From: Bacteroidales bacterium
Lineage (GTDB): Bacteria > Bacteroidota > Bacteroidia > Bacteroidales > Bacteroidaceae
NCBI GenBank assembly: GCA_030528885.1
Contig: JAUMXY010000005.1
Coordinates: 6,924-70,923 of the forward strand
Direction: 5' to 3'
DNA length: 64,000 bases
A model generated the notes under the pieces. The model made no database searches, was not told the origin of the DNA, and saw only the letters and a program-made list of their open reading frames with translations. The translations under genes were made by a program, and so were the position numbers. The stretch's first letter is position 1. Every line of letters begins with the position of its first letter. Of the stretch, positions 2,821-23,242 are shown piece after piece.

Positions 2821-3426
2821 TCATTTTCTCATTCCTCCACTATCATGGGAATACTCTTCTTCTAAAGATGCAATGGTCTTTTTGTACAATTGGGTGAGTT
2901 TCTCGTTGCCGAATGGCTCACCCACCAACACAATCTTATTTTCTTTATTCAACAGAAATGTCTTATTCCGAGCCAAAACATCAAGTTTATTTACCTCGCC
3001 AAATACCGATGTGTCATAATACATCAATGGACATGGCAGACGCATAGAATCAATGTTCTCGAACAGCACATCTTTCTCTTGGGTCTGCACGACAATCACG
3101 TATGCCACTTCCGAATCTATCTCTTTCACTTCATCAATCCAGGCATGCAACATCCTCACACCGCATGAGGTACAGGGAAGGTTGTCTATGTATGACACCA
3201 CCTTTATATCCTTAGTCAATAAAGAATCGACAGACAAAGAATCATTGCTGGACAGCGACACATAACCATCAGGAAATGTAATCTCACACCCTGATAACTC
3301 CTGGATTTCTTTGATTAGGCGGTCGTTGTTGTTGCAAGAACAGAGGAACACAAATGTCAGCATCATGATTATAACAAATGCTGTTCTGTTCCTATATTTG
3401 TTTTTACAATATTTTAGACAAGTCAT
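2821..3426 (-). CDS. TlpA-like thioredoxin-fold lipoprotein (module 1)
   Basis: 201 aa with lipobox FLCSC and a CxxC motif (PCTSCG). About 85% identical by eye to the paralog at 7867..8427. The true start may be the internal MML at 3366. Confidence 0.75.
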   Translation of the reverse strand: MTCLKYCKNKYRNRTAFVIIMMLTFVFLCSCNNNDRLIKEIQELSGCEITFPDGYVSLSSNDSLSVDSLLTKDIKVVSYIDNLPCTSCGVRMLHAWIDEVKEIDSEVAYVIVVQTQEKDVLFENIDSMRLPCPLMYYDTSVFGEVNKLDVLARNKTFLLNKENKIVLVGEPFGNEKLTQLYKKTIASLEEEYSHDSGGMRK

Positions 3427-4501
3427 AACGAACCGTATTTCCTTCTACATCAACAGCATAAATTGCATTGGCCACTTCGTTGTAAGTAAAACATATTATT
3501 TTCCCTTTCAAAATCACAGATGTGATGAAGTTTCCACTCCAATCAAAAATTCTCATCTCTGGATTATTGGGGATTTGCTCTTCAGCATCTGGATCTGTTA
3601 TGCTTATTTTCCCATTATGCCAAATAAATATATATGAATCAGAAAGGGCATAATTAACTATTTGCAATTTTAACTTACTTCGTACATCTTCTTTACTTAG
3701 TGAATGGAGACTTTCAAAGTAATCATCACTTTCCTTCTTGGGTTTTACACCTATTGTTTTTCCCTTTTTCAGATCAACTATCGTAAAACGGTCCTGAAAA
3801 AATGGAAGTTCTATGCATTTTGTCAGATCAGGAGACATTTCAAGACATGCCATATACAATTCATTATCTATTCCATTCTCATTGGACAATATTGATGGAT
3901 ATGCTGAGTAGGATTTACATTCCTTGCCTTTATAGACATCTATTCTTGATGCTGAATTAACATAATCGCGAGCATCACCTTCAAACCCGTATGGCAGATA
4001 TTCTACACGATTACTGTCCGTCAGCCAGAATGTCGATAAATTCATACCCACATGTATGTTTTTCACATTCTTTTCCAAAACACATTTTGATTGGGAAAGA
4101 GTAGATGTCAGATTGATTCTTTTAGTATTTAGTGATTCCCTGAAACACATTATCAAATCGCCCTTTTGGTTTTTCCTGAAATAACAACTATTAGGAATCT
4201 CTTCAAATTCCACTTTGGAATGACCAACTTCGCCAAATTCTGCAATGACTGAATCATTTTTTGCATTCATCACATGAACCAGTGGTGAAGAATACGAGAA
4301 ATAAATCACTAAATCTTTGTAATTGCATGCTGCATAAAGATCCTTGTTAATACCAACACTTATGGGTTTGCCTGAGATGGAATCGGGATACTCGGGAAAA
4401 TCCACTTCCACCAATTCATCTGTTGCATAATATTTGTCTTTAGTACATGAGACAAAACAAAGCAGTAAAACTGCAACGCCAAATATACAATTCTTGTTCA
4501 T
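3404..4501 (-). CDS. beta-propeller-type lipoprotein (6-bladed / BF3164-like family, module 1)
   Basis: ORF 3404..4615 trimmed to MNKNCIFGVAVLLLCFVSC (lipobox) at 4501. The family assignment is recalled from typical NVEALA neighbourhoods and was not searched. The paralog at 8429..9550 is only ~35% identical. Confidence 0.55.
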   Translation of the reverse strand: MNKNCIFGVAVLLLCFVSCTKDKYYATDELVEVDFPEYPDSISGKPISVGINKDLYAACNYKDLVIYFSYSSPLVHVMNAKNDSVIAEFGEVGHSKVEFEEIPNSCYFRKNQKGDLIMCFRESLNTKRINLTSTLSQSKCVLEKNVKNIHVGMNLSTFWLTDSNRVEYLPYGFEGDARDYVNSASRIDVYKGKECKSYSAYPSILSNENGIDNELYMACLEMSPDLTKCIELPFFQDRFTIVDLKKGKTIGVKPKKESDDYFESLHSLSKEDVRSKLKLQIVNYALSDSYIFIWHNGKISITDPDAEEQIPNNPEMRIFDWSGNFITSVILKGKIICFTYNEVANAIYAVDVEGNTVRYDLSKIL

Positions 4502-4571
4502 AAGAATACAAAGTTTACATGAGGGTAAGTCAAAAGTAGTTGGCCCGCCCTCATGATAAAACAATTTTTCT

Positions 4572-4943
4572 TTATTTATAAACACACCAATGTTGGTGAT
4601 CACCTCCGGCACCATTCATTCTTCGATAACCTTTTTTTGAGCACTTAGTCTGATTGTTATATGCAGTTTCTTGTGTAAATTCATAGTTCATTTCGGAGCA
4701 GATATATTCTTTAACTTTCTGATACCCATACATACCAGGGGTGTCTTCTCCGTAAGTATAACACTCATGTGCCGGCAGTTTATTTGAATTGCCTTCACCA
4801 CCTGCATTTCCAGCCAATGCCTCAATATTCTGCATCAGCAGGCTGTTGTCCTGTGCTCCGTAAGCACCGTAAGTTTGGTAGGCGGCAAATCCTGCTGCCA
4901 TTACCACTGCGGCTGCTATGCCGCATTTGATTGATTTTCTCAT
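4572..4943 (-). CDS. NVEALA-family Cys-containing secreted/anchored peptide (module 1)
   Basis: 123 aa. N-terminal hydrophobic segment, LLMQNIEALAG motif, Gly-rich stretch (GNAGGEGN), then a variable C-terminus with 4 Cys. Confidence 0.7.
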   Translation of the reverse strand: MRKSIKCGIAAAVVMAAGFAAYQTYGAYGAQDNSLLMQNIEALAGNAGGEGNSNKLPAHECYTYGEDTPGMYGYQKVKEYICSEMNYEFTQETAYNNQTKCSKKGYRRMNGAGGDHQHWCVYK

Positions 4944-9587: not shown

Positions 9588-9944
9588 TTACAAGAGACAA
9601 AGTCCCCATGCTTTCTCTGAAGGTTCTGCGTCAGGATAGAGTGTTGCCTCATTACAAGGCTCATGATGACCAGGTCCACACTTTCCTTGTATACACAAAG
9701 TCGTTCCAGGTGCACATTGAGGAACTTTCCCTTGCCAATTTTGTCTAGTTGTTACATCTTTACAACAATACTGAGTGTCTACCCCTCCACTACCATTTTC
9801 ACCATCCTGACTCAATGCTTCCAGATTCTCCGTCAATAAAACATTGTCAACATTCTCGTAAGCTTCGTACGCTTTCCATGCTCCGAGGCTAGACACCACC
9901 ACGGCGACCACTGCAAAAGTGGATTTGGCAATTGCTTTCTTCAT
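9588..9944 (-). CDS. NVEALA-family Cys-rich peptide (module 2)
   Basis: 118 aa. N-terminal hydrophobic segment, LLTENLEALSQ motif, GENGSGG, then a C-terminus with 7 Cys that is unrelated to module 1. Confidence 0.7.
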   Translation of the reverse strand: MKKAIAKSTFAVVAVVVSSLGAWKAYEAYENVDNVLLTENLEALSQDGENGSGGVDTQYCCKDVTTRQNWQGKVPQCAPGTTLCIQGKCGPGHHEPCNEATLYPDAEPSEKAWGLCLL

Positions 9945-12365: not shown

Positions 12366-13070
12366 ATGAGTACGGAAAAGAAAACACGCTACAGGCGTAC
12401 AAAGGCAGACATCACGGAAGACATCAGGAAAGCCGCCGTTGACCAAGTGATGAAACGTGGCTTTTCGGCATCATTGGTGACGGAAATCATCAAGAAGGCA
12501 AAAATAGAGCCTCCTGTCTTTTACCATAGATACAAAAACATTGACGAATTCTACAGCGAGTTTGTCAAGGGGTGCGACTATTGGTTTTCGGATATCGCGG
12601 ACAAAGCCATGAAGGGGAGCGACAATCCCAAAGAACAGTTCCTCGCCCTCATGGAGGGATTGCAGGAAGCCCTGAAGGAAAAGTCGGTGATGCACGAGCT
12701 GTTACGTTGGGAAATTGCTGAAGGGAATGACACAACCAAGAGGACTGCCACACTCCGAGAAATGTTCACCCTGCCTCTGGCGGACAAATACAATGCACTG
12801 TTTGCAGACACGGGCATCGACTTTGTGGCACTTGCCTCACTCTTGATTGGAGGGCTCTATTATCTGCATCTCCATAGAGAACGTTCCACATTCTGCAACA
12901 TTGACATGGAGAAGGAGGAGGGGACCCAACGCATCGAAAAGGCAATAAAGACCTTCACCAACATCATCTTCTCCTTTCTCGAACGCAGGGACACCAAACA
13001 AGACGTGGCAGAAAGGATGAGAGCCAAGGGTATCGACGAGCAAACCATCAAGGAGTGCCTGTTGATATGA
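12366..13070 (+). CDS. TetR/AcrR-family transcriptional regulator
   Basis: 234 aa with an N-terminal TetR HTH (IRKAAVDQVMKRGFSASLVTEIIKKAKIEPPVFYHRYKN). Confidence 0.8.
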   Translation: MSTEKKTRYRRTKADITEDIRKAAVDQVMKRGFSASLVTEIIKKAKIEPPVFYHRYKNIDEFYSEFVKGCDYWFSDIADKAMKGSDNPKEQFLALMEGLQEALKEKSVMHELLRWEIAEGNDTTKRTATLREMFTLPLADKYNALFADTGIDFVALASLLIGGLYYLHLHRERSTFCNIDMEKEEGTQRIEKAIKTFTNIIFSFLERRDTKQDVAERMRAKGIDEQTIKECLLI

Positions 13071-13072
13071 TT
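12772..13072 (+). repeat. direct repeat, left copy (functional 3' end of the TetR gene)
   Basis: Aligns by eye with 23629..23927. I count about 28 differences over ~300 nt, including one 1-nt indel. Confidence 0.85.
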
Positions 13073-13449
13073 CATGGCTTCATATTACGTTTTATACATG
13101 TAAAACTGAAATCTCTATATGTCTTACTAAGGGAAAAACGCAAATCATTTATTATAGCAAAAAGCCATATCTGTTTTCACGGCTCCGGGCACAGCTCCGG
13201 TCAATACAATGGCAATGACAAATAGTTGTGAAAACACTTTCTCGCTTTTAAAGACAATTTCGTGATTCACTCTTAGCTGAAAAACAAGTAGCTATGATTC
13301 ACTTTGAATCGTAAAGAAGTTCCCTCAAATGTATGATCTGATTATTATCTGATAGAGAATTAAAAATCGATACTTAATAACAAAGATGAAGGAAGTAAGA
13401 GTTGACTATTCCCATGAGCATGATGTGAGAATAAAATCAAATTTGAAAT

Positions 13450-16212
13450 ATGGAGAATTTAAGTAAAGCGATAAAAGCTCTTTTCGTAAAAATGAGCGGA
13501 GATGAGATTCTAAAACATGCAGGATTCTTACCTCTCGAGAAGACAGATCACATAGAAAATGACAATCAGAGACTTGATTCAAACATACCAGAGTCTATTG
13601 TCATAAACAAACTATTACAAGTTGATTTTGAAAGCACTATCGACCAACTCAATATTGTTTATCAAATAATACAAGACAAGTGGGTCATCAAAGACAAATC
13701 AAATTTAGACTTACAATTTCGTAATAGTGATTCGGTCTTTAATGCGCTTCTTCATTTTGCATCCAAATGTCTCACTGTAAAAGATGGAGAGCCTCTTTGT
13801 CAATATCGCACATTATTACGTTGGCATTTAATTGCAGGACAAGTTGGTGAAGATCTTCTAACGACAGCATTTATTGCATCGCATGATATAAAACGAAAGA
13901 AAAGGAGAAGTACATTCGATTGGAGTGCTTATTTGGGACATGACTGCAAAGAACTAAATTATATTCTTGAGAAACCGATGGCAGAATTGCACATGCACCT
14001 GAAAGGTTCTTCATTCAATTTTGACTTGAGTTGGTCATGTCTGATGAACCATATTGGCATTATGCAAAGCCGTTTTGAATTAGAACATCCTCTTCACCCA
14101 TATATTGATCCCGATAAGACTCTTTATGAAAAAGTGAGGAGAGCTGCAGCTATTAGATACTATTTGGCTGTTGCTGTTGGTTGTGTTAAAGATGACCTGT
14201 CATTAGCACAATTATATTCTTTTTTGAACGACAAAGTGGATGAAAAAAATCTTCCGAAAAAAAACGAAGAAAGAGAATTTAGGAAAAATGAATGGAGAAT
14301 TAAAAACGAAGAAAGAAAATTTAGGAAAAAGGAATTGGGAATTGAAAAAGAAGTAGATATCCTTGAAAAAATAGACAAAAGTCGCGAGAAGACGAAGAGA
14401 TTTATCAAAGAAAAGTTTGAACAGGCTAAAATCAATCAACATTTTAGTGATCAATTAACGGATAATGATATTATTGATTACATCCCCGTGCTGCATTATG
14501 AAAGTGAGCCTATTGAAAACAAGGTCTTAGCTCCAGAAAGAGCTTTGATGTATTCTGTTTTCTCTGCTATTTATGGGGGTAATGAGGAGTCATCTAATAT
14601 TGCGACATTATTCTATGCATATCTGGCATATAAAACATATTTCAGAAATGCGATTATACAGTTGAACGAGAGGGTTGGTTTTGCCAATTTTGCCAGTTAT
14701 GAGGAAAGAAAGACCGACTATATCCTTGAGGATTATTATCATTTACTGTATAAAGCAGCCATTGAAGGTTTCTTGGAAAAAGGAACAGACAGATATATTG
14801 AAGCAAGAGTTGTTCCCAAAGATACAGAAGAAGGCATAGTTAGATCACTTTTTGACTATTGTAAAGAAATCGATGAAAAATACAAGAAGAAGTACTCGTT
14901 TATCTTTCATTTCATCAAACAAAGAGATGAACCTAAAGGAGAAGGCTTCTATCGACATTATGATTTACGACATGCAATAAAAAAACAGGCTTATGCCATC
15001 TATCAGTTTAGAAGTAATAGAAAAAACTGGGAAGGTGACAACAACTTGGTAGGCAAGGTCGTTGGTTTGGATGCTGCAAATTCCGAGGTGTTCTGTAGAC
15101 CAGAGGTCTATGCACAGGCTTTCAGGTTTCTAAGAGGACACGAGATAACAATTGATGAAGAGACGGAAGAATATCCTAAAGATCTTAATATTACTTATCA
15201 TGTAGGTGAGGATTATATGGATATTGCTGATGGATTGCGGTCCGTGGAAGAGGCTATGCTTTTCTTAAACTTAGGAAACGGAGACCGTCTAGGACATGCA
15301 CTTGTACTTGGTACTGATGTTAGAAGTTATTATGAAAAGCGTTATTATACCATATGCGCAAGTAAACAGGTCATATTAGACAATTTAGCATGGTTGCATC
15401 ACAAATGTATTCGTTTGACAGGTTACACACAACTATGTGGATGGCTGGACATCATGTTTTTGAAATATTTTGATGATATTTATGGGAAGCATGATGAGAA
15501 GGAGGATAATATCATTGATTTGTTTTTTACCGATGAAAAGAATAAAAATCTTTCAGACGATATCAATGACTATTATCTGTCTTGGTTGTTGAGAGGTGAT
15601 TCACCCGTCATTGGAACGGAATTGGCTAATGAAAATTTAGAAAGAATGGTCTCAACAATTGACAGGCAATGGGTATATGCGGGTATGAATCATCAAGTTT
15701 GTGCAGAGGTCGCTCTAAAAAATGAACGTGCCCGAGATTTATTCGATGCTTACCATTCTTACAAATATGCAAAAAAAGGATATTTAGGAGATACACTGAC
15801 TATACCACCTATGTATAGAGACGAATGGTATATGCTTTTGGAGAAAATACAGCAGCAACTTCTCGAAAAGGTCGAGAAAAGACACATCGCTATTGAATGC
15901 AATCCTTCATCGAATTTTAAGATTGGTGAAATCGAACGATATGACGAGCATCCTATTATTAAATTCTTTAACTATGGTCTTAAGACTCCATACCCTCGGC
16001 ATGATATTGCAGTTTCTATCAACACGGATGATCAGGGTGTTTTTGCCACCTCTTTAGAACGTGAATATTCGCTCATGGCTTTGGCGATAGAAAGAAATCG
16101 TCATAAGGAATATGAGAATTCTCCAAGAGCTATTTGGGAATGGCTTGATAGAGTAAGGGAACTTTCTATGGAACAAAGGTTTAACAAAATAAATCAACAG
16201 AAAAATGGATAA
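13450..16212 (+). CDS. large adenosine/AMP-deaminase-fold metallo-hydrolase (RdrB/Cad1-like catalytic core, novel N-terminus and insertions)
   Basis: 920 aa. Catalytic motifs: ELHMHLKGS (His181/His183), TYHVGEDY (His584, Glu587), GDRLGHAL (His616), IECNPSSN, SINTDDQGVF (Asp860/Asp861). The gene is visibly AT-rich. It carries a K/E-rich insertion containing a 14-aa tandem repeat. Confidence 0.8.
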   Translation: MENLSKAIKALFVKMSGDEILKHAGFLPLEKTDHIENDNQRLDSNIPESIVINKLLQVDFESTIDQLNIVYQIIQDKWVIKDKSNLDLQFRNSDSVFNALLHFASKCLTVKDGEPLCQYRTLLRWHLIAGQVGEDLLTTAFIASHDIKRKKRRSTFDWSAYLGHDCKELNYILEKPMAELHMHLKGSSFNFDLSWSCLMNHIGIMQSRFELEHPLHPYIDPDKTLYEKVRRAAAIRYYLAVAVGCVKDDLSLAQLYSFLNDKVDEKNLPKKNEEREFRKNEWRIKNEERKFRKKELGIEKEVDILEKIDKSREKTKRFIKEKFEQAKINQHFSDQLTDNDIIDYIPVLHYESEPIENKVLAPERALMYSVFSAIYGGNEESSNIATLFYAYLAYKTYFRNAIIQLNERVGFANFASYEERKTDYILEDYYHLLYKAAIEGFLEKGTDRYIEARVVPKDTEEGIVRSLFDYCKEIDEKYKKKYSFIFHFIKQRDEPKGEGFYRHYDLRHAIKKQAYAIYQFRSNRKNWEGDNNLVGKVVGLDAANSEVFCRPEVYAQAFRFLRGHEITIDEETEEYPKDLNITYHVGEDYMDIADGLRSVEEAMLFLNLGNGDRLGHALVLGTDVRSYYEKRYYTICASKQVILDNLAWLHHKCIRLTGYTQLCGWLDIMFLKYFDDIYGKHDEKEDNIIDLFFTDEKNKNLSDDINDYYLSWLLRGDSPVIGTELANENLERMVSTIDRQWVYAGMNHQVCAEVALKNERARDLFDAYHSYKYAKKGYLGDTLTIPPMYRDEWYMLLEKIQQQLLEKVEKRHIAIECNPSSNFKIGEIERYDEHPIIKFFNYGLKTPYPRHDIAVSINTDDQGVFATSLEREYSLMALAIERNRHKEYENSPRAIWEWLDRVRELSMEQRFNKINQQKNG

Positions 16213-16597
16213 AATATTTTTAAAAGAGTGTTTCTTGCAGAAGACAAATCAGTATGAAGCATTAGACGTATTATCTAAAGATGAAAATGATTTGAGACTC
16301 GGTTCGTTTCTATTTCTTTGTTTTGACGAGAAAAAAGATAAGGAGAAAAAACTAGTTTTTGCAAAAACAAAAGTTAAAGATGGAAATATAGAGGGTGAAG
16401 AAAAAACAATAGGCATCCTATCTGAAGAAGATGCGAAAGAAATTAAGCCGTATCTTGAAGTGGGAAGAATGGACCTATATGAATGTCGAATTAGTAAATT
16501 TGACAAGGATGGAGATGAAAACAAAAGGTTTAGCATTGCCATTTTCATAGTATCAAAGGACTACGTCAATCGACAACAAGGAAAGGCCAGACGCTAA
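16205..16597 (+). CDS. small partner protein, possibly HIRAN-like
   Basis: 130 aa. The start overlaps the deaminase stop by 8 nt (ATGGATAA). The C-terminal half, TIGILSEEDAKEIKPYLEVGRMDLYECRISKF...RFSIAIFIV, resembles the HIRAN pattern (vGyl....a..l.plld.g.....), but the NpyD signature is absent. Confidence 0.45.
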   Translation: MDKIFLKECFLQKTNQYEALDVLSKDENDLRLGSFLFLCFDEKKDKEKKLVFAKTKVKDGNIEGEEKTIGILSEEDAKEIKPYLEVGRMDLYECRISKFDKDGDENKRFSIAIFIVSKDYVNRQQGKARR

Positions 16598-16621
16598 TCC
16601 TCAACATAATGGTGAGGGAGC

Positions 16622-18838
16622 TTAATCTATCAAAGCTTTAAGGTCTTCCAATGAAAGATGCTCGTTTGCAGCATTAAACTGCTCCGTTGTCTGACGTTTA
16701 CGGTTCTGTAGAAGGAGTATTTTCTCCTCGACAGTGTCTTTACAAACAAGGCGTAGCGCTAAAACATTCTTCTTCTGACCGATGCGATGGGAACGTCCCA
16801 TTGCCTGGTCTTCGACTGCGGGATTCCACCAGTCATCTAAAAGGATGACACGATCGGCTGCTGTCAGGTTGAGACCTACGCCCCCGGCCTTAAGACTTAT
16901 TAAAAAGACGGTTATTGATGAATCTGACTGAAACCGTTCTACAGGTGTCTTTCTGTCACGGGTGTCACCATAAAGTGTGACAAATCGGATACCTGCTTCC
17001 TGAAGTTTAGATTCCATCTGATGGAGAGCTGTTACAAACTGAGAGAACACCAATACCTGATGGCCTTCTGAACGGAATGCGTCAATATAATCAATAGCAA
17101 CAGGAAATTTTGATGGAATGCAGGCCTGACGTAACCGTAGAAGTCCTTCTAATGCAATACTACTGAGACGACCACTCAAACCTGTTGCAAAAGCTTGAAG
17201 GATAGCAGTGTGGATGTTTTGATAGTTCTTCCGTTCTTGATCTGTCAATTCAATAAAGATAATTTTTTCTATCCGTTCAGGTAAATCCGAAAGAACCACT
17301 TGCTTCTCCCTGCGTAGAATAAATGGCTTCAGCAGTTTACTGGTTATACTTATATAAGTTTCAGGCTGGGTCTGAACACCTAATCTGTGGAGGCGTTGGT
17401 ACAAACTTTTCAGTGGTGGCATCAGTATCATGAAATGAGACCATAGTTCTTCTATAGAATTTTCAATGGGGGTGCCAGTAAGTATGATTTTATGCTTGCA
17501 GTCAAGTTTGCTTATTGCCTGGTATTTTTTTGTCTGTCTATTTTTTACAATCTGGGCTTCGTCAATGATAATTGTATCGTAATGATGATTTATATAGTTT
17601 TCAAGATGGATACGTAGCATGTCATAGCTAACAAGTGTGAGCTGAGGCATCAATTGTGGAGCAAAACGGAGGATTTCATTCTGCCAATTATATATTAAAG
17701 AGGTTGGAGCAATTATAAGATGTTGGACTTGGACATCCAGACAACAGAGGTGGGCAATGACTTGAAGTGTCTTGCCAAGTCCCATTTCATCAGCCAGTAG
17801 ACAACCATGATGGTTCTTACGTTGCTGTTGGAGCCAAAAAACGCCATCTTCTTGATAATTTCGGAGGGTTGCAAGGATTTTTTTATTAATTGTATCTTTA
17901 ATAAATTGTCGTTCCGATGACGAAAGAGGAACGTTTTCCTGATATAGCTGAAGTACATCGGTAGTGCCCCCTAATAGTTTGATAGTTGTTTTATCATCGC
18001 TTTTCTCTGCATCTTTACGTTGGAAGATTGTAATATGACCATCACTTTCATGATAATTGCGACTGTTAAGATAGCCGTCAAGCAACTGCTGGGCAAACTC
18101 TGAAGAGGATATGTCCTCTGTTGAAAACCAAATAATACCCGAAGGTTCACGATGAGCATAAGCTTTTGACAACTTCTGTTCTTGGTTGGGTACGTAAAGA
18201 GTCCACCCATTGTTTACGAATTCTTGAAGTTGTTGGGTATCTGGTTCATCCAAATTCAAGGTTGCAGTGGTTGCATCATAAGAATCTCCAAGTTTTGACA
18301 ATAAAGAAGACTCCGCGTCGTAATCTCTTTGGAAAAGCTTGTTGTCTGAAGTAACAAATGGGAGTGAAGAAAAAGTGGGATAAAAGGAGCTAAGTGCATC
18401 AGCATAGCGCAATCTTACCTGAAGGTTGTGATGCCAAGAATTGATATTACTGATATATAATTCTCCTCCGATGAGTCGTCCAATCTTAATTTTGTCAGTT
18501 TGATTGTTTGAAGGTAGTTTAATTTGCCCTTTTTTTATGCTGCCTTTGGGAGCAGATTCTACAAAATTATATGGATGACATATGATGACATGCTGAACAA
18601 GCGGATTTTCTAAAAGACGGTGAGGAATACGAAATGGCTGAGTCGATAGTCCTGCGTGATTAAGTAAGGAAATAAGTTCATTGGACGTAGAAATCCCTGA
18701 TTTCTGAATGTCACTGAGTGTTACTTTGCGCTGAAAAGGGGCAATAGTTTTGCTATTCCCTTCCAGGCATACTTCTACACGTATAGCCGGAATCGGTTTG
18801 GCATATTGTTCGGAAATGCAAAGCAGGCGGTAGGACAT
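16622..18838 (-). CDS. SNF2-family ATPase/translocase with uncharacterised ~330-aa N-terminal region
   Basis: 738 aa. Motifs: LADEMGLGKT (I), IIIDEAQIVKN (II), LTGTPIENS (III), VLVFSQF, GGVGLNLTAADRVILLDDWWNPAVEDQAMGRSHRIGQ (V/VI). Starts 4 nt after the rSAM stop. Confidence 0.9.
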   Translation of the reverse strand: MSYRLLCISEQYAKPIPAIRVEVCLEGNSKTIAPFQRKVTLSDIQKSGISTSNELISLLNHAGLSTQPFRIPHRLLENPLVQHVIICHPYNFVESAPKGSIKKGQIKLPSNNQTDKIKIGRLIGGELYISNINSWHHNLQVRLRYADALSSFYPTFSSLPFVTSDNKLFQRDYDAESSLLSKLGDSYDATTATLNLDEPDTQQLQEFVNNGWTLYVPNQEQKLSKAYAHREPSGIIWFSTEDISSSEFAQQLLDGYLNSRNYHESDGHITIFQRKDAEKSDDKTTIKLLGGTTDVLQLYQENVPLSSSERQFIKDTINKKILATLRNYQEDGVFWLQQQRKNHHGCLLADEMGLGKTLQVIAHLCCLDVQVQHLIIAPTSLIYNWQNEILRFAPQLMPQLTLVSYDMLRIHLENYINHHYDTIIIDEAQIVKNRQTKKYQAISKLDCKHKIILTGTPIENSIEELWSHFMILMPPLKSLYQRLHRLGVQTQPETYISITSKLLKPFILRREKQVVLSDLPERIEKIIFIELTDQERKNYQNIHTAILQAFATGLSGRLSSIALEGLLRLRQACIPSKFPVAIDYIDAFRSEGHQVLVFSQFVTALHQMESKLQEAGIRFVTLYGDTRDRKTPVERFQSDSSITVFLISLKAGGVGLNLTAADRVILLDDWWNPAVEDQAMGRSHRIGQKKNVLALRLVCKDTVEEKILLLQNRKRQTTEQFNAANEHLSLEDLKALID

Positions 18839-18842
18839 AGGC

Positions 18843-20177
18843 TTAAAACTGATAATAATAGAGATAACTGTCTATCATCTTGCGCTCTAATTGCGAAATG
18901 AATTCCTGTGAGCATTTTATCTGTAGCATCGGACCTTGATATCCAATCAATTTGCCATTGAAATTACAATCTTCTATTCGACAACCTCCACAGCAAATAT
19001 ATCGCAGGTGACAGGCTTGACATGGATGGAGATTGTCAACAGAGGTAATGTTATGAAGGAGTTTGCCCTGCTCTATGAAAGGTCTTATTGACTTCCCTTT
19101 TATATTACCATAACTTTCTACTTCTGATAGCCGATTACAATAGTACACCTCTCCATCAGCTCCGATAGAAATACCTCCATATCCACAATTTCGAGTTATA
19201 CTGTTAGGCTCATGTCCCTCTATAAAGTTCGAATATTGAGCATTAGGATTGACTGCACGTTCTATCTCCATCACTCTATTATAAAAAGAACGATTTTCTT
19301 CCTCCGTATAGTTTGTATTGCGTCCTTGTAATATCTTCTTACTAAGTTTAAAAAATACGGGATATTTGCACTGTTCCTTAATAACCTCTACCATCTGATG
19401 GTATTTTGGAGCAGCATCCTGCTGAAGGTTTTTAAAGGTAAAAGTTGTAGCTACGGAAGTCCTAATTCCTGCATTGGCAAAACGAATGACGTTGGCTACT
19501 ATTTTATCAAAGTGTCCTGCTCCTCGAACTTTAGCATTTGATTGCTCATCGAAACCGTCAATGCTAATTTGAATCTCACTAATGTATGGAGATAGCTTAT
19601 TAATTGATTCTTCTGTCCAAAGGATACCATTAGAAAGTACGGTTGTAGTTAGCCCTTGTTGATGGCTATGGATAAGAATGGTTTCAAAATCACGGTTCAT
19701 TAAGGGTTCCCCTCCGGTAAAGGTCACATTTACCCCCCCCTGGTGGCGGAAGTCCGTCAATATGCGTAGCCATTCTTCTTTGGTAAGCTCATTTGCCAAT
19801 GGTTTGCCAGAGCGCATAAAACAATGGTCACAACTGAGATTACAGGCATTTGTAAGATAACAATTAATCTGTTGGGTTACATCATTCGGTATTGGAGATG
19901 GTGTTGCATTAGTGTTGCCAAACTCCCGCGCAGTAATAGCTGCGAGAAGTCGTTGGAATTCATTTTGCTTGTCAATATCTGTAATTAGCGGGAAGACATC
20001 TCCAATGGTTTTTCCTGTAAGCAGACCCTCCAAAATTATTTTTTGAAAATCGGTTATAACTAACCAGTTAGCTGTAGACACGGCTACTACCAACCATCCC
20101 TCCTTGCAACTTCTGAAAATCACATCTTCAGGAAAAAAGAATCTGTCTGTGCTATTGAGCGTTCCGCTATGTTTCAT
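18843..20177 (-). CDS. radical SAM/SPASM peptide maturase with N-terminal PqqD-like RRE
   Basis: 444 aa. CNLSCDHCF (CxxxCxxC) and the C-terminal CQACHLRYICCGGC SPASM cluster. The N-terminal ~90 aa (EDVIFRSCKEGWLVVAVSTANWLVITDFQKIILEGLLTGKTIGDV) fits a PqqD/RRE pattern. Confidence 0.85.
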   Translation of the reverse strand: MKHSGTLNSTDRFFFPEDVIFRSCKEGWLVVAVSTANWLVITDFQKIILEGLLTGKTIGDVFPLITDIDKQNEFQRLLAAITAREFGNTNATPSPIPNDVTQQINCYLTNACNLSCDHCFMRSGKPLANELTKEEWLRILTDFRHQGGVNVTFTGGEPLMNRDFETILIHSHQQGLTTTVLSNGILWTEESINKLSPYISEIQISIDGFDEQSNAKVRGAGHFDKIVANVIRFANAGIRTSVATTFTFKNLQQDAAPKYHQMVEVIKEQCKYPVFFKLSKKILQGRNTNYTEEENRSFYNRVMEIERAVNPNAQYSNFIEGHEPNSITRNCGYGGISIGADGEVYYCNRLSEVESYGNIKGKSIRPFIEQGKLLHNITSVDNLHPCQACHLRYICCGGCRIEDCNFNGKLIGYQGPMLQIKCSQEFISQLERKMIDSYLYYYQF

Positions 20178-20190
20178 ATCTTAATTCTTA

Positions 20191-20225
20191 AAAATTGTGT
20201 TCCATGGTCTTGGACCGTGGAACAC
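20191..20225 (-). terminator. hairpin + T-run between precursor ORF and rSAM gene (attenuator / partial terminator)
   Basis: Arms 20197-20209 and 20213-20225 pair at 12 of 13 positions around a 3-nt loop. On the sense (minus) strand the hairpin is followed by AATTTTTAAG, 19 nt before the rSAM ATG. Confidence 0.5.
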
Positions 20226-20277
20226 AACCCAATTGGGTAACTATACCGTGATATGAACTTAATCCTTGATCAGGGGA

Positions 20278-20388
20278 TTAGTTCTTGTTCACATCGCAGT
20301 TCTTAAAACAGTACATAGCACCTATGCGCTCTGTCTTTCCTGCTTCTTTTGTCTCCCAATTGAACGAAATTGTGAAAATCTCTTTCAT
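20278..20388 (-). CDS. candidate RiPP precursor peptide (36 aa, below the ORF-track cutoff)
   Basis: My own translation gives MKEIFTISFNWETKEAGKTERIGAMYCFKNCDVNKN. It lies 38 nt downstream of the M42 stop and immediately upstream of the RRE-rSAM gene. The C-terminal segment YCFKNCDVNKN carries 2 Cys plus Asp/Asn. Confidence 0.45.
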   Translation of the reverse strand: MKEIFTISFNWETKEAGKTERIGAMYCFKNCDVNKN

Positions 20389-20426
20389 TTCGAAAACTTT
20401 AATTTTTTTTTAATTAATAATGTTAC

Positions 20427-21482
20427 TTAACTCAATTCCTGCAAAAACTCTGTTAAAAGAGCTATTGCATTATCGGCATCTTCTAATGAAACCATCTCAT
20501 TTGGAGTGTGCATATATCGGCAAGGTATGCTAATCAGCCCAGTCTTAATACCTTTTCCAGCCACTTGAATCATTCGGGCATCGGTACCTGTTGGACTTGC
20601 AATTGCTTCTACTTGATAAGGGATTTTTATCGTCTCAGCTATATTTGTGAATTTCTGATTAAGACCCTTGTTCATATTAGGTCCCATCGGAATGACGACA
20701 CCTTTACCGAGCCGAATGTCACCATCCTTTGCTGGAGACATGGTGGGGTAGTCAGTGGCATGAGTAACATCAATTGCAACACCTATTTCTGGAAGAATAG
20801 CTGCTGACACCATCTGTGCACCTCTAGCTCCCAGTTCCTCTTGAACAGTGGCGACCAAGTAGATATCACAATCTGTTGATATTGTCTGCAAATTGTTTGC
20901 CAAACCTATAAGTACTGCCAAACCTATCTTGTCATCAAGCGATTTTGATAGAACAAAAGTGTCAGTCAAGATGGTAGGCATTGTTGCATACGTTGCCACA
21001 GACCCAACTTGAACCTTGGACAACGCATCTTCTTTATCTTTGGCGGCAATGTCAATCCACAAGTCTTCTGGGCTAAGATTCTTACCACAATCCGGTTCGC
21101 CTTGCAAGTGAATAGGTTTTCGTCCGATAATGCCAGTAACGAGTCCTTGTTTTCCTTGTATATAAATGCGTTGACCTGGTAGTAAGTTTGTATCGATACC
21201 ACCAATTTGATTAAAATACAAGAATCCCCTGTCGTCAATGTAACTAATCATGAAACCCACTTCATCAGCATGAGCCATAAACATTATCTTAGGGCCATTA
21301 CCTTTCTTATGGGCGATACAATTACCATTAACATCGCAATTAACCTCGTCGACATACGGCATAACCGTTTTGGCAAAGAACTCTATTAACTGCTCCTCGC
21401 TTCCTGACGGACTTGCCATCAGCAAACTCTTATGTAATATATCCTTCAGCCAAACATCCATAGAGTTCAAATTTGGATACAA
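20427..21482 (-). CDS. M42-family aminopeptidase (FrvX/CelM-like)
   Basis: 351 aa with MAHADEVGFMI and DDKIGLAVL plus metal-binding His/Asp/Glu blocks typical of M42. The true start may be MDVWLKDIL at 21461. Confidence 0.8.
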   Translation of the reverse strand: MYPNLNSMDVWLKDILHKSLLMASPSGSEEQLIEFFAKTVMPYVDEVNCDVNGNCIAHKKGNGPKIMFMAHADEVGFMISYIDDRGFLYFNQIGGIDTNLLPGQRIYIQGKQGLVTGIIGRKPIHLQGEPDCGKNLSPEDLWIDIAAKDKEDALSKVQVGSVATYATMPTILTDTFVLSKSLDDKIGLAVLIGLANNLQTISTDCDIYLVATVQEELGARGAQMVSAAILPEIGVAIDVTHATDYPTMSPAKDGDIRLGKGVVIPMGPNMNKGLNQKFTNIAETIKIPYQVEAIASPTGTDARMIQVAGKGIKTGLISIPCRYMHTPNEMVSLEDADNAIALLTEFLQELS

Positions 21483-21746
21483 AGTTACGAAATAATTTTA
21501 TTTCTCAAACAAAAACTTTACAAAATAGTTACTTTAAGTTTCTATTATACGAATATAGTCAGCTTGCTCGATTTAAGAACATAAAAACTGAGGTATTTAG
21601 ATTCTGTTAGAAAATGAATCGTATTCTATGTTAAATTAGAGTACATACACAAACCACCTTGCCCTTTCTCATTCTGACCATTACAGGTTGACCCACTGGA
21701 ATCAACAATAATTCGCAACGTTCTGACAATATTCGAAGCCCCCCTC

Positions 21747-22307
21747 TTACGTTTTTTTATGATAATCCCCTCTTAGTTCTTGCAAATAGGTGGCTTCTTC
21801 TGGGGAATCGGCCCTATCTGTTGGAACCCGTCCCGTGTACCCCACAAAGTGAGCCATCATTTTCTCAACATGTGGATGATCCAACTGACCTTCATTGATT
21901 AAATCATCTAGCTCATCAACATCAAGAGAACGTAGTTGTTGGAAGTCAACAAGAAGTAATGGGGCATCTATAACTGGGTTGGGATCAAAGAAAAAATATC
22001 GTCCCACATTTGAATTATGAATAAAATTGGTCAAATAATTCACAAATGATTCCCAAGCCTTTTTTGTCAGTCCCCCCTCTTCATTCGCTGATTCTACTTT
22101 TCCCTTGTATTCTTTCGTAGACATCAAAGTTTCCTTAGCCGGAACAAGGGCGGCAACAATTAAGAAACTTAATTTATCATGCTCGAAATCACAAGCGTTT
22201 GATAAAACAATACTCAACACCGGATTTTCCTCACCTCTTCCCCAATCAACCCCACTGACAATACTGCCTTGAGTTATGTTTTCCCGTGCCCCAACAACCC
22301 ACTGCAT
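21747..22307 (-). CDS. hypothetical protein (186 aa), third gene of a 3-gene operon
   Basis: Starts 2 nt after the upstream stop. The N-terminal GSIVSGVDW...VLSIVLSNACDF...LIVAALVP is only vaguely MazF/PemK-like. No firm family. Confidence 0.4.
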   Translation of the reverse strand: MQWVVGARENITQGSIVSGVDWGRGEENPVLSIVLSNACDFEHDKLSFLIVAALVPAKETLMSTKEYKGKVESANEEGGLTKKAWESFVNYLTNFIHNSNVGRYFFFDPNPVIDAPLLLVDFQQLRSLDVDELDDLINEGQLDHPHVEKMMAHFVGYTGRVPTDRADSPEEATYLQELRGDYHKKT

Positions 22308-22308
22308 A

Positions 22309-22623
22309 TCAATAATCCATTTCTATAATGTCACCGACACTCTTATTGCTGTATGCTTTCTTAAACCATTCCGACTTGGCCATCTGGGCGTAACGCTTAC
22401 GGAAATTTTTCTTTTGGGGACTCACATACCTGACCTCTTGTACATAAGTCGTTGAATAATCATAGGTCTGCACTGTGACCACACTCACCATAGCCTGCTC
22501 ATCACGAGCAAGGGCTGGAGTCATGGTCATTGACAAAGCGCCAGCCAATGCTGCCATCTTAAAAAAAGTATTCTGGCTGCTGCTGGTCATTGTATTTTGT
22601 TCCTTATTATCGCTCATTCTCAA
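22309..22623 (-). CDS. small secreted protein (signal peptide ...ALSMTMTPALA)
   Basis: 104-aa ORF; the likely start MTSSSQ at 22590 gives 93 aa. Overlapped or abutted by both neighbours. Confidence 0.4.
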   Translation of the reverse strand: MRMSDNKEQNTMTSSSQNTFFKMAALAGALSMTMTPALARDEQAMVSVVTVQTYDYSTTYVQEVRYVSPQKKNFRKRYAQMAKSEWFKKAYSNKSVGDIIEMDY

Positions 22624-23242
22624 TCAGTCTTTTGATAATTCTTTCTTCTATTGTTTCGATTGAACTTTCTATTAACGATTTAGCCTCTTCTCCTATCGGC
22701 ATTCCACTTAAAAATTGGTTATGATGATGATTGATATTGGCAAAAATTCCATTTCGTATTCCACGACGTGGCTCAATTTCCACATTTGCAACTTGGGTCT
22801 CATTTATTCCAAGTCTCAAATTCAGTTTGTTGCACATCTGAAAGGAAGACGCATCTGATAAAGAGGGGTTAATAAAATGATTCCATAACCAAACTTCCGA
22901 ACTTTCGTTTATATCCGTCCACTGATATTCACTGTTAATACCAAAAGAAGAAAATCTGTTCCCATGGATAAACTTGTCAATTTCTGGCTGTAAAGCCTCC
23001 ATATATTCCTGCAAACCATTTCTATCTTTCGCTTTTATAACAAGTCTTGTAGGACTTAACACCATCATGGGAAAAGGTTTGTTTTCTATCGCTACAACAT
23101 ACCCATCTGGAGTAAATCCATTAAACGTATCATAAGGCAGACCAAACAAATCTTTCGCAAATCTATTATCAAAGTTTGGTAATACAGCCAAAGGCTTCTC
23201 CCAAACTCCCACAAAGGAAATGCTAAAACTGGTTTTCTCCAT
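22607..23242 (-). CDS. hypothetical protein (211 aa), first gene of a 3-gene operon
   Basis: Clean ORF with no recognisable motifs. Confidence 0.4.
   Translation of the reverse strand: MEKTSFSISFVGVWEKPLAVLPNFDNRFAKDLFGLPYDTFNGFTPDGYVVAIENKPFPMMVLSPTRLVIKAKDRNGLQEYMEALQPEIDKFIHGNRFSSFGINSEYQWTDINESSEVWLWNHFINPSLSDASSFQMCNKLNLRLGINETQVANVEIEPRRGIRNGIFANINHHHNQFLSGMPIGEEAKSLIESSIETIEERIIKRLIENER

Follow-up and report, generated by a model that had tools for sequence, protein, structure and literature searches.

A six-gene mobile cassette lies within the window (the whole 64-kb stretch of DNA that was analysed) and is probably an anti-phage system derived from RADAR, in which control by RdrA would have been replaced by a HIRAN/SNF2 arm acting together with a matured peptide. 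The cassette comprises genes for an RdrB-like deaminase, a HIRAN-like protein, a SNF2-family protein, a radical SAM (rSAM)/SPASM enzyme, a 36-aa peptide and an M42 aminopeptidase (Table 1). These genes bring together three things that had not been linked before in immunity, namely an RdrB-type deaminase, a HIRAN/SNF2 pair and an exporter-less module in the style of the RiPPs, and no description of the architecture was found in the literature searched, which agrees with the sequence-only reading that had failed to recognise it.

Table 1. Positions of the cassette and its features in the window.
Feature	Position	Strand	Remarks
Whole six-gene cassette	13364..21514	.	8.15 kb; block common to L001, another Prevotella genome with unrelated flanks
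RdrB-like adenosine-nucleotide deaminase, predicted effector	13450..16212	+	920 aa; NCBIfam RdrB, PADLOC RdrB, PDB 8fnw/8hr7
42-nt tandem duplication in the deaminase gene (14-aa repeat)	14260..14343	+	copies 90% identical
HIRAN-like partner	16205..16597	+	130 aa; start overlaps deaminase stop by 8 nt
SNF2-family helicase/translocase	16622..18838	-	738 aa; Pfam SNF2-rel_dom E 1.2e-49, Helicase_C E 3e-20
Radical SAM/SPASM peptide-maturase-like enzyme	18843..20177	-	444 aa; Pfam Radical_SAM E 4.7e-24
Hairpin and T-run, attenuator/terminator-like, between peptide and rSAM genes	20188..20227	-	arms 20195-20209 and 20213-20227
Precursor-like peptide gene	20278..20388	-	36 aa; MKEIFTISFNWETKEAGKTERIGAMYCFKNCDVNKN; overlooked in the sequence-only reading
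M42-family aminopeptidase, first gene of the minus-strand operon	20427..21482	-	351 aa; Pfam Peptidase_M42 E 1.8e-90

The deaminase and its relation to RdrB

Judged from its sequence, the 920-aa protein is distantly homologous to RADAR RdrB over its full length and is related to immune deaminases. The NCBIfam RdrB model (NF041744) aligned with residues 244-909 over model positions 158-845 of 850 (E 5.1e-44), and the PADLOC RdrB model matched at E 2.7e-29. The closest structure in the PDB was that of RADAR RdrB (8fnw/8hr7, E 5.6e-25), which matched in four collinear segments and placed the HVGED and GDRLGH motifs in line with H498-H530 of RdrB. RdrB proteins linked to RdrA matched across residues 1-911 in tblastn searches, and the insertions that form the RdrB shell have counterparts in the deaminase by length and position. 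The N-terminal region and the long insertions had been regarded as novel and the protein as an orphan; the region and the insertions are both shared with RdrB, which bears three insertions of this kind (PMC9994260), and the nearest outgroups of the protein are bona fide RdrA-RdrB systems. The NCBIfam score of 151 bits is far under the equivalog cut-off of 800, so that under PGAP rules the protein is not named RdrB, and because of this distance its substrate and oligomeric state could differ from those of RdrB.

The catalytic set of the adenosine deaminase (ADA) fold is complete, as had been claimed: H181, H183, H584-V-G-E587-D588, H616, C817-N-P-x-S-N822 and N858-T-D860-D861 were each invariant in a 16-sequence alignment that included family members down to 48% identity. 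None of the 15 homologs in that alignment has the 14-aa repeat, which is an insertion in the window protein. The size of the protein, 2-3 times that of metabolic ADAs, was likewise as described. Pfam A_deaminase matched the C-terminal segment 802-877 only (E 5.7e-11), and metabolic ADA models of NCBIfam scored 18-45 bits against cut-offs of 216-530. A housekeeping adenosine, AMP or adenine deaminase was considered and rejected, the best match of this kind (TIGR01430) reaching 45.5 bits, where the cut-off is 216.55, over residues 802-879 only, and the context being a mobile cassette rather than purine metabolism. Searches with Pfam, PADLOC and NCBIfam gave no CARF domain in the deaminase, in line with the earlier claim; the PADLOC CARF_ADA model covers the ADA part alone (residues 801-877, model positions 483-557 of 605, E 1.7e-10).

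The HIRAN-like partner

The two plus-strand open reading frames and their 8-nt overlap, read directly from the sequence as ATGGATAA, are located where the sequence-only reading had placed them. The small gene immediately follows the deaminase gene at 17 of 18 related genome loci; at the 18th, the sequence available downstream is only 350 nt long. Since neither a clustering with housekeeping deaminases nor a missing partner was seen, the proposal of an immune rather than a metabolic role survives.

Pfam HIRAN was the sole recurrent family among homologs of the partner (11 of 30 at E<=0.1, best E 3.9e-5), one of which, P0203, has a precomputed match to PF08797; the window protein itself scored 13.4 bits against the PF08797 gathering score of 24.7 (E 0.071). 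Foldseek searches of the PDB with its AF2 model returned HLTF HIRAN structures as the top 5 matches and Rad5 at rank 7. The HLTF matches had probabilities of 0.99-1.0, TM scores of 0.50-0.57 and E values of 0.026-0.056, none at E<=0.001, for a model with a pLDDT of only 71.5. We therefore describe the partner as HIRAN-like, on the basis, for the window protein, of a sub-threshold Pfam score and a moderate-confidence model.

The SNF2, radical SAM and M42 enzymes

The three enzymes encoded on the minus strand retain their active-site residues. Walker A, DExQ and motif VI of the SNF2 protein were invariant in 62 of 62 sequences, and its core matched PADLOC defence helicase models of the DpdE/ZorD type at E 1e-96 to 1e-63. 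The AF2 model (pLDDT 81.6) gave SNF2 remodelers and ZorD as fold matches, and the N-terminal ~310 aa had no NCBIfam match.

For the rSAM enzyme, Pfam Fer4_12 matched in addition to Radical_SAM, and SPASM matched in the ortholog at locus L042. The top NCBIfam models were the sactipeptide maturases StsB (E 7.8e-40, residues 8-402) and SkfB, at scores under the curated-family cut-offs (137 bits against 625 and 107 against 300, respectively); no NCBIfam cut-off was reached. The cysteines of the rSAM cluster and of the SPASM auxiliary clusters are present, C112-x3-C116-x2-C119, C331, C347, C386, C389, C395, C399 and C422 being kept in 71-72 of 72 sequences. The M42 metal ligands H71, D73, D183, E215, E216, D238 and H325 were invariant in 79 of 79 sequences.

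The peptide gene and its copies in phages

An open reading frame of 34-36 aa was found in the gap between the M42 and rSAM genes in all 16 module-carrying genome loci, with the M42 gene directly upstream at every locus. The core, GAMYCFKxCDVNxN, is invariant and the leader nearly so; no NCBIfam family matched the peptide. Comparison of the coding sequences indicates that the gene is under purifying selection: across the 16 genome loci, diversity at codon positions 1, 2 and 3 was 0.18, 0.14 and 0.51 overall and 0.06, 0.04 and 0.48 in the core. The arms of the hairpin between the peptide and rSAM genes are 93% complementary, with a computed RNA fold of -34.3 kcal/mol (z -4.67) followed by UUUUU. 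Nearly all loci have a stem-loop at the same place, usually followed by a T-rich tract, and the stem sequences differ.

Copies of the peptide also occur, without any of the cassette enzymes, on temperate-phage contigs among phage neighbours. These copies preserve both leader and core, and up to 30 of 34 to 32 of 36 of their residues agree with those of particular host variants. Their C-terminus is QT, FM or VD in 50 of 59 copies, as opposed to xN in 92 of 92 host copies.

Borders and co-inheritance of the cassette

Comparison with L001 by blastn showed 94.8% identity over 8151 bp, with similarity ending at both borders, and the right border is the same in two further loci (L192 and L169). No terminal repeats were detected at the cassette. 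Its G+C content is 34-40%, compared to 45-50% in much of the window. In other genomes the neighbours of the cassette include PARIS, HEC-02, KAP NTPase, Old/Gabija-like and PycC-like genes; the flanks in the window itself contain no recognisable defence genes.

All six genes were found together in 14 of 14 HIRAN-type genome loci with adequate flanks. The deaminase was present at all 8 metagenome loci in which both flanks were adequate and at 29 of the 32 whose downstream sequence extends for 5.5 kb or more, the other 3 being cut upstream; one apparent exception to co-occurrence, L150, was resolved. Furthermore, divergence of the deaminase tracks that of SNF2 and of M42 at r=0.94, a correlation as tight as that between genes of the module, and the two halves of the cassette co-diverge at r=0.89-0.94 down to ~45% identity. 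The earlier proposal of a two-gene module thus stands as regards the tight coupling of a conserved small partner and fails as regards the unit, which is not the pair alone, since six genes co-occur and co-diverge; the SNF2/rSAM operon, which had been set apart as a neighbour of the pair, belongs to the same cassette.

Three gene orders were observed among the loci, and in the window the deaminase pair and the module are convergent. As the halves can be convergent, they need not share one transcript and could be separable systems. Other genes lie between the halves at some loci, namely HEC-02 (L042 and L149) and a PDC-M29-like pair (L219, L125 and L150).

Loss of RdrA and the deaminase lineages

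As the sequence-only reading had held, RdrA is absent: 53 RdrA queries in tblastn and an RdrA HMM run against all ORFs of at least 80 aa gave 0 matches in the whole window. RdrA is also missing at every locus of the clade to which the window deaminase belongs. In a neighbor-joining tree of 101 deaminases, built without bootstrap, the deaminases that lack RdrA and are linked to both the HIRAN-like gene and the module formed one clade. Their sister group is made up of RdrA-RdrB systems in which the module is also present; further out there is plain RADAR only. The HIRAN-like gene occurs only where RdrA is absent.

The SNF2/rSAM/peptide/M42 module was seen with three different RdrB lineages, including one recent re-pairing with another RdrA-RdrB lineage in which the module is 78-87% identical and the deaminase 42-44%. 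In the dataset analysed, RdrA was lost only in a lineage that carries the module. A natural lineage has thus dropped RdrA and kept RdrB, apparently under other controllers, and comparison of such lineages should reveal what RdrB needs for its activation.

Relation to known systems

RADAR, also reported by Gao et al. 2020, resembles the cassette in that homology to RdrB extends over the whole length of the deaminase, N-terminal extension and insertions included, with the same catalytic residues; by analogy, conversion of ATP and dATP to ITP and dITP would be expected of the window enzyme. The cassette differs from RADAR in having, instead of RdrA, a HIRAN-like partner and an obligatory SNF2/rSAM/peptide/M42 module. 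RADAR consists of the AAA+ ATPase RdrA and the adenosine deaminase RdrB (Duncan-Lowey et al. 2023, PMC9994260), with RdrA heptamers docking onto a dodecameric RdrB shell. RdrA is required for activity in vivo, and purified RdrB is active alone in vitro; RADAR is treated as a two-protein system, and the terms "accessory", "RdrC" and "RdrD" are absent from the text (PMC9994260).

Cad1, the CARF-fused adenosine deaminase of type III CRISPR, which converts ATP to ITP (PMC11645235), is likewise an ADA-fold immune effector and has weak similarity in the C-terminal ADA segment, but the window deaminase has neither a CARF domain nor a CRISPR context and is much closer to RdrB. Kongming also employs adenine-nucleotide deamination in anti-phage immunity, the dITP made by its deaminase being an immune signal that activates KomBC (PMC13454610, bioRxiv 10.1101/2024.12.20.629578). 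As (d)ITP is in that case a signal and not only a poison, the product of the window deaminase may feed another component. The cassette differs from Kongming in that KomB and KomC (HAM1-like or SIR2) genes are apparently absent from it and the deaminase is of the RdrB type.

The SNF2 protein resembles ZorD of Zorya, DpdE of Dpd and DrmD of DISARM in its motor core, where it matches their models, and ZorD also ranks among its best structural matches. The resemblance is confined to that core, and the ZorABC, DpdA-K and DrmABC partners are absent from the cassette. In HLTF and Rad5, which are eukaryotic SNF2 ATPases, a HIRAN domain that binds DNA 3' ends is fused to the motor. The cassette would similarly join a HIRAN-type fold, as modelled, and a SNF2 motor in one functional unit, but its HIRAN-like protein is separate and translationally coupled to the deaminase instead of being fused to SNF2, and there is no RING. 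As in the sactipeptide and ranthipeptide RiPPs, the gene for a short precursor with cysteines in its core directly precedes that for an rSAM/SPASM enzyme, an attenuator separates the two, and there is a dedicated peptidase. Unlike those RiPPs, the cassette has a peptide that hardly varies in either leader or core, lacks genes for export or immunity, and couples the module to a helicase and a deaminase.

Proposed mechanism and alternatives

The RdrB-type effector, once switched on, would convert ATP and dATP to ITP and dITP and thereby abort infection, as expected from its homology to RdrB. With RdrA, the usual activator, lost, two other arms would control the deaminase. In one, the HIRAN-like subunit, whose synthesis would be coupled to that of the deaminase, may bind free DNA 3' ends and, together with the SNF2 translocase, act as a split sensor, resembling HLTF/Rad5, of phage DNA or of replication intermediates. 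In the other, the rSAM/SPASM enzyme would modify the 36-aa peptide at its two-cysteine C-terminal core, and the M42 aminopeptidase would trim it to a small intracellular ligand needed for regulation, whether as activator, inhibitor or assembly factor. The phage copies with a changed C-terminal Asn would most likely be decoys that jam this regulatory step. A narrower version, which we put forward only tentatively and consider somewhat doubtful, is that the modified peptide is the intracellular ligand of the deaminase and, together with the split HIRAN/SNF2 sensor, takes the place of RdrA, with phages countering by C-terminally altered decoys. Should the peptide prove to be an internal ligand, radical-SAM-modified peptides would have roles beyond antibiotics and cofactors; if the narrower version is true, the cassette would hold the first RiPP-type internal component of anti-phage defence, and the phage copies would be the first peptide-mimicry counter-defence of such a kind.

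It is unlikely that the two halves are independent systems, an RdrA-less RdrB-HIRAN pair and a SNF2 system with a modified peptide, which island dynamics or synergy has joined. The halves were never apart at any informative locus, they co-diverge as tightly as genes within the module, and RdrA was lost only where the module is carried. Separate convergent transcription units in the window, three gene orders and the insertion of unrelated candidate systems between the halves speak in favor of independence, as does the activity of purified RdrB alone in vitro (PMC9994260), yet the association of the module with three RdrB lineages, a recent re-pairing included, would be unexpected of random island neighbours.

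We regard as rather improbable a reading in which the matured peptide restrains the deaminase in the manner of a labile antitoxin, made at a high level from the attenuated transcript and constantly degraded by M42; shut-off of host expression by a phage would then let the peptide decay and free the deaminase, and the phage copies would stand in as antitoxins that keep the system silent. Mimics of antitoxins encoded by phages are well known as a means of counter-defence, an aminopeptidase is plausible as the turnover enzyme, and the phage peptides keep the leader and core that processing by the host maturase needs; the evidence on architecture applies to this reading as well. A faithful replacement should nevertheless retain the C-terminal Asn, which most phage copies change, and since sister systems with RdrA carry the module too, the peptide would be more than a replacement brake on an enzyme that has lost its regulator. 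A non-immune pathway of the natural-product or cofactor type, with the ADA-fold enzyme serving metabolism, for example in the disposal of 5'-deoxyadenosine (a by-product of radical SAM enzymes), appears very improbable. In its conserved leader and core, its peptidase and its lack of an exporter gene the cassette recalls peptide-derived cofactor pathways such as those of PQQ and mycofactocin; 5'-deoxyadenosine is a known substrate of some ADA-fold enzymes, and the window flanks are not defence genes. Such a pathway has no place for SNF2 and HIRAN-like proteins, however, and the deaminase is a full-length RdrB homolog nested in RADAR diversity, with an RdrA-RdrB sister group and metabolic ADA scores far from their cut-offs. 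The patchy, mobile distribution, the location in defence islands elsewhere and the carriage of the peptide by phages also argue against it.

Distribution in Bacteroidales

A scan for the peptide returned at least 120 loci, and the system occurs commonly in metagenomes of Prevotella, Segatella and Bacteroides. The phage copies of the peptide offer an immediately testable entry point to an arms race in Bacteroidales of the gut and rumen, whose defence systems have seldom been studied by experiment. On some phage contigs the peptide gene is followed, two genes downstream, by an rSAM-like gene of the phage's own (phrog_24834), and the peptides of such phages may have their own function instead of a decoy role.

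The Deaminase Belongs to a Six-Gene Cassette

The sequence-only reading of this DNA had described an orphan pair, a giant adenosine deaminase (ADA)-fold protein with an overlapping small partner. Both open reading frames are present as it had them (positions and strands in the table), and so is the 8-nt overlap between them (ATGGATAA). Searches of species-representative genomes gave 420 matches to the large protein, 80 of these loci were analysed, and well over 100 full-length relatives occur in metagenomes. Clustering of all ORFs neighbouring the deaminase at the 80 genome loci revealed further constant partner genes and ruled out an orphan two-gene pair. The more distant loci (n = 60, 29-41% identity), from Lachnospiraceae, Clostridium, Bacteroidales, Flavobacteriia and other hosts, carry immediately upstream an ~860-aa gene matching the PADLOC model of the RdrA ATPase and are ordinary RADAR (RdrA plus RdrB deaminase) systems. 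RdrA was found in none of the closer loci (≥46% identity), which come from Prevotella, Segatella, Xylanibacter, Bacteroides and other Bacteroidales. At 17 of the 18 closer loci the small gene lies directly downstream of the deaminase, the 18th having only 350 nt downstream; this bears out the co-occurrence on which the sequence-only reading had staked its case.

An M42 aminopeptidase, a radical SAM (rSAM)/SPASM enzyme and an SNF2 helicase accompany the deaminase at all 14 closer loci with adequate flanks, in the order M42-rSAM-SNF2-deaminase-small, in the order deaminase-small-M42-rSAM-SNF2, or in the convergent form of the window, where the three genes occupy 16622..21482. The reading had placed the pair beside an SNF2/rSAM operon; the adjacency stands, and operon and pair lie together in one common block. 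The DNA common to the window and its nearest relative, a different Prevotella genome whose flanks differ from those of the window, extends exactly from 13364 to 21514 and comprises six genes and nothing more. This cassette is AT-rich compared with much of the window, and no convincing terminal repeats were found at its borders. Elsewhere its surroundings include PARIS AriA/AriB, HEC-02, KAP NTPase, Old/Gabija-like ATPases and a PycC-like gene; no recognisable defence genes were found in the cassette flanks of the window itself.

Features of the cassette, its flanks and the loci compared (unprefixed positions, window; L numbers, genome loci found via the deaminase, IMG/VR contigs L081-L111 or metagenome contigs L112-L231)
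Feature	Position	Strand	Remark
Large ADA-fold deaminase, 920 aa	13450..16212	+	RdrB-like
42-nt tandem duplication within deaminase gene	14260-14343		adds 14-aa Lys/Glu-rich repeat
Small partner, 130 aa	16205..16597	+	start overlaps deaminase gene by 8 nt
SNF2 protein	16622-18838		N-terminal residues 1-310 without family match
Peptide gene (34-36-aa ORF family), sixth gene	20278..20388	−	reads MKEIFTISFNWETKEAGKTERIGAMYCFKNCDVNKN
Three packed/overlapping genes (186, 104, 211 aa)	21747-23242	−	directly past cassette border
Paralogous proteins, ~400-430 aa	8429-9715 and 3404-4615	−	TolB-like 6-blade propeller in first only
118-aa Cys-rich protein	9588-9944	−	upstream of, and overlapping, the 8429-9715 gene
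Inserted two-gene unit, 202 aa + ~420 aa	L219, L125, L150 (e.g. L150:54-1518)		PDC-M29A match
444-aa protein	L042:15358-16692, L019:10975-12309
PycC-like protein, 227 aa	L157:6401-7084		PADLOC E 2.2e-18; between module SNF2 gene and RdrA
DUF6016 genes	L042:8425-8823, L157:12523-12918, L019:3534-3926
Phage-context peptide genes, examples	L086:565-717; L081:10077-10187		temperate-phage-like contigs
rSAM-like phage protein, 361 aa, cluster v12	L086:1017-2102 and orthologs		phrog_24834, E 5e-174

A Distant RdrB-Like Deaminase and a HIRAN-Like Partner

Pfam recognises the last ADA segment alone (residues 802-877, E 5.7e-11), and the protein therefore looks like an orphan in a plain domain scan. The profile searches that the sequence-only reading had called for did return RdrB, with E 2.7e-29 for the PADLOC models and E 5.1e-44 for the NCBIfam RdrB equivalog model, whose positions 158-845 of 850 match residues 244-909 with a score of 151 bits against a curated cut-off of 800. 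The best solved-structure matches were likewise RADAR RdrB (8fnw, 8fnv, 8hr7; E 5.6e-25); four collinear segments align, the N-terminal HxH region among them, and HVGED and GDRLGH fall on the RdrB catalytic histidines. Metabolic ADA models gave weak C-terminal matches of only 18-45 bits, far under their cut-offs, so that a metabolic identity was rejected and the clustering with metabolic deaminases that would have told against the reading was not seen. Taken together, the RdrB model, PADLOC and structure matches and the weak metabolic scores identify the large protein as a distant, full-length RdrB homolog. Its supposedly novel N-terminus and long insertions have counterparts in the three insertions of RdrB, which build the RdrB dodecamer (PMC9994260). 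The proposed catalytic residues (H181/H183, H584-VGED-588, H616, CNPxSN 817-822 and NTDD 858-861) are all invariant in an alignment of 16 family members with identity down to 48%.

The two absences that the sequence-only reading had noted were borne out. The PADLOC scan found no CARF domain in the large protein, unlike Cad1, the CARF-fused deaminase of type III CRISPR, and a Cad1-like identity was rejected; no part of the 64-kb window matched any of 53 RdrA queries or an RdrA HMM. The window deaminase also contains a 14-aa repeat (KNEEREFRKNEWRI / KNEERKFRKKELGI) that sits in a variable linker and is missing from 15 of 15 aligned homologs.

HIRAN (PF08797) was the sole recurring family among 30 independently scanned homologs of the small protein (11 of 30, best E 3.9e-5), the window protein itself reaching a sub-threshold 13.4 bits. 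An AlphaFold model built from 25 sequences (pLDDT 71.5) had the HLTF HIRAN domain as its five best PDB matches (probability 0.99-1.0, TM 0.50-0.57), with Rad5 at rank 7. HLTF and Rad5 carry the HIRAN domain, a binder of free DNA 3' ends, fused to an SNF2 motor; in the cassette the deaminase is the coupled partner of the predicted HIRAN-like protein, and SNF2 has a gene of its own. The small gene was found only in loci without RdrA.

A Peptide Gene, its Attenuator and its Candidate Maturase

A conserved 34-36-aa ORF occupies the M42-rSAM gap (200-250 bp) in 16 of 16 genome loci carrying the module, that is, the SNF2, rSAM/SPASM, peptide and M42 genes. Because invariance of the core in loci found by the core pattern is circular evidence, it was discarded, and coding status was judged from loci found via the deaminase, a set hence unbiased for the peptide. 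The core GAMYCFKxCDVNxN is invariant in these genome loci, and nucleotide diversity by codon position was 0.18/0.14/0.51 for the whole gene and 0.06/0.04/0.48 for the core, a pattern typical of a gene that is translated and maintained by purifying selection. The peptide had no curated family match.

In the window the peptide ORF is followed 3' by an attenuator, a strong hairpin (−34.3 kcal/mol, z −4.7) with a U-run; at the equivalent place other lineages carry stem-loops that differ in stem sequence and usually come with a T-rich tract. Rfam gave no match in region 13000-22000, and sigma-70 promoter and terminator scans, which are ill-suited to Bacteroidales promoters, stayed at background level. 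Precursor, attenuator and maturase in succession form the classic layout for rSAM-modified peptides. By family the rSAM enzyme comes closest to StsB and SkfB, two sactipeptide maturases, with scores under both cut-offs. Its CxxxCxxC motif and seven more cysteines are invariant, and the same holds for the metal ligands of M42 and the motor motifs of SNF2.

Residues 1-245 of the SNF2 protein have a confident predicted fold (pLDDT 80-93, mixed beta/alpha). The N-terminal region had no NCBIfam match, and comparison of the full-length model with the PDB, dominated by the motor core, gave no assignment for it; this region could read the peptide or the deaminase complex.

One System or Two

In an unbiased census, metagenome contigs scanned for the back-translated peptide core yielded at least 120 loci, at least 92 of them in M42/rSAM context. 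Among the matches listed, the deaminase was present in 8 of 8 module loci with both flanks adequate and in 29 of 32 with ≥5.5 kb downstream, and the contigs of the three remaining loci (L143, L137, L162) end ≤700 bp upstream and are hence unscorable. L150 was rejected as a module-only locus because its flanking genes are 91-96% identical to an inserted two-gene unit that in L219 and L125 lies between SNF2 and HIRAN-deaminase, and its contig ends before the expected deaminase position. In the RdrA-less clade the pairwise identities of SNF2 (r = 0.94), M42 (0.94) and rSAM (0.89) track those of the deaminase, against 0.92-0.97 among the module genes, and this co-divergence persists to ~45% identity over three gene orders. 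A rival view holds that two systems are merely kept together, and it draws on the fact that other candidate defence genes can lie between the deaminase pair and the module; the data favour one functional system. The inserted unit separates SNF2 from the convergent HIRAN-deaminase pair in one sublineage, and its ~420-aa protein matches the PADLOC candidate PDC-M29A (E 2.5e-48).

The module also adjoins complete RdrA-RdrB pairs in three further arrangements: RdrA-RdrB(972 aa)-module (L131, L183, L215), module-PycC-like-RdrA-RdrB-DUF6016 (L157) and RADAR-HEC-02-module (L042, L019, L149). Between L131-type and RdrA-less loci the module is 78-87% identical and the deaminase only 42-44%, so the module has come to be paired anew, with a different RdrB lineage. 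In a neighbour-joining tree of 101 deaminases, built without bootstrap, the RdrA-less, HIRAN-linked sequences group in a single clade. Its sister group consists of the module-bearing RADAR systems, and plain RADAR branches outside. The most parsimonious account would have the module join a RADAR lineage first and the small protein take the place of RdrA afterwards.

Module-linked RdrA-RdrB loci have a DUF6016 protein (~130 aa, E 1e-29) after RdrB, where the RdrA-less clade has its HIRAN-like gene; relatives also occur in L004 and L024. Directly after SNF2, the L042-type module encodes a 444-aa protein without a match in Pfam, PADLOC or NCBIfam, possibly an additional component of this type of module.

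Phage Copies of the Peptide

Scanning IMG/VR for the peptide core gave 31 viral contigs, and at least 28 metagenome peptide loci lack cassette context. All phage-context contigs encode full-length peptide homologs and none of the cassette enzymes; the neighbours are small genes, integrases, YopX, DNA methyltransferases, GNAT, a nucleoside-2-deoxyribosyltransferase-like protein and PHROG families. A tblastn search of isolate phage genomes (INPHARED) gave no match; the case for phage copies is therefore built on contigs from IMG/VR and metagenomes that have PHROG-positive neighbours. The next gene after the phage peptide is consistently a GNAT-like 139-aa gene or a 127-205-aa gene without assignment.

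Phage peptides reach 30/34 to 32/36 identity with particular host variants. Among the matches listed, a C-terminal xN is present in 92 of 92 host copies and a QT, FM or VD terminus in 50 of 59 phage-context copies, these last residues having lain outside the core search pattern. Leader and core kept, with the invariant terminal residue altered, is what a decoy would look like. The phage peptides may possibly have a function of their own, since some phages carry, two genes downstream, the rSAM-like gene phrog_24834, whose product may modify the phage peptide; by tblastn it shows no relation to the cassette SPASM enzyme. Roughly half the phage loci of the QT type have this gene, and its Pfam Radical_SAM match is only E 4e-5.

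Proposed Mechanism and Comparison with Known Systems

In the proposed mechanism the deaminase would convert (d)ATP to (d)ITP in the manner of RdrB, and the HIRAN-like subunit and SNF2 would act as sensors of phage DNA ends or of replication intermediates. The rSAM enzyme would cross-link the Cys-containing peptide core, M42 would trim the product to an intracellular ligand regulating the complex, and the phage copies would serve as decoys. M42 enzymes assemble as tetrahedral dodecamers in their own right, and co-assembly with the deaminase is conceivable. That the peptide is instead an antitoxin-like inhibitor is a live alternative.

Going by the RdrB homology, the effector end would be like that of RADAR; the cassette differs from RADAR in lacking RdrA and in a deaminase that scores under the RdrB equivalog cut-off. 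No Zorya, Dpd or DISARM partner genes were found within the cassette. The sequence-only reading had not recognised the architecture from described systems, and the literature searched yielded no publication that links RdrB to radical SAM, that brings SPASM together with SNF2 and anti-phage activity, or that treats adenosine deaminase, SNF2 and radical SAM jointly in an anti-phage setting, and no HIRAN title concerning the cassette. The control module is without precedent in that literature.

Other Observations in the Window

The three genes past the cassette border lie outside the block common to the window and genome locus L001; none has a Pfam match, the 186-aa protein has none in PADLOC or NCBIfam either, and they may be another small accessory system. 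On the other side of the cassette, the paralog at 3404-4615 had no Pfam match. The N-terminal part of the 118-aa Cys-rich protein ends in GSGG, and this set of genes resembles a secreted-peptide locus of Bacteroidales, without relation to the cassette.
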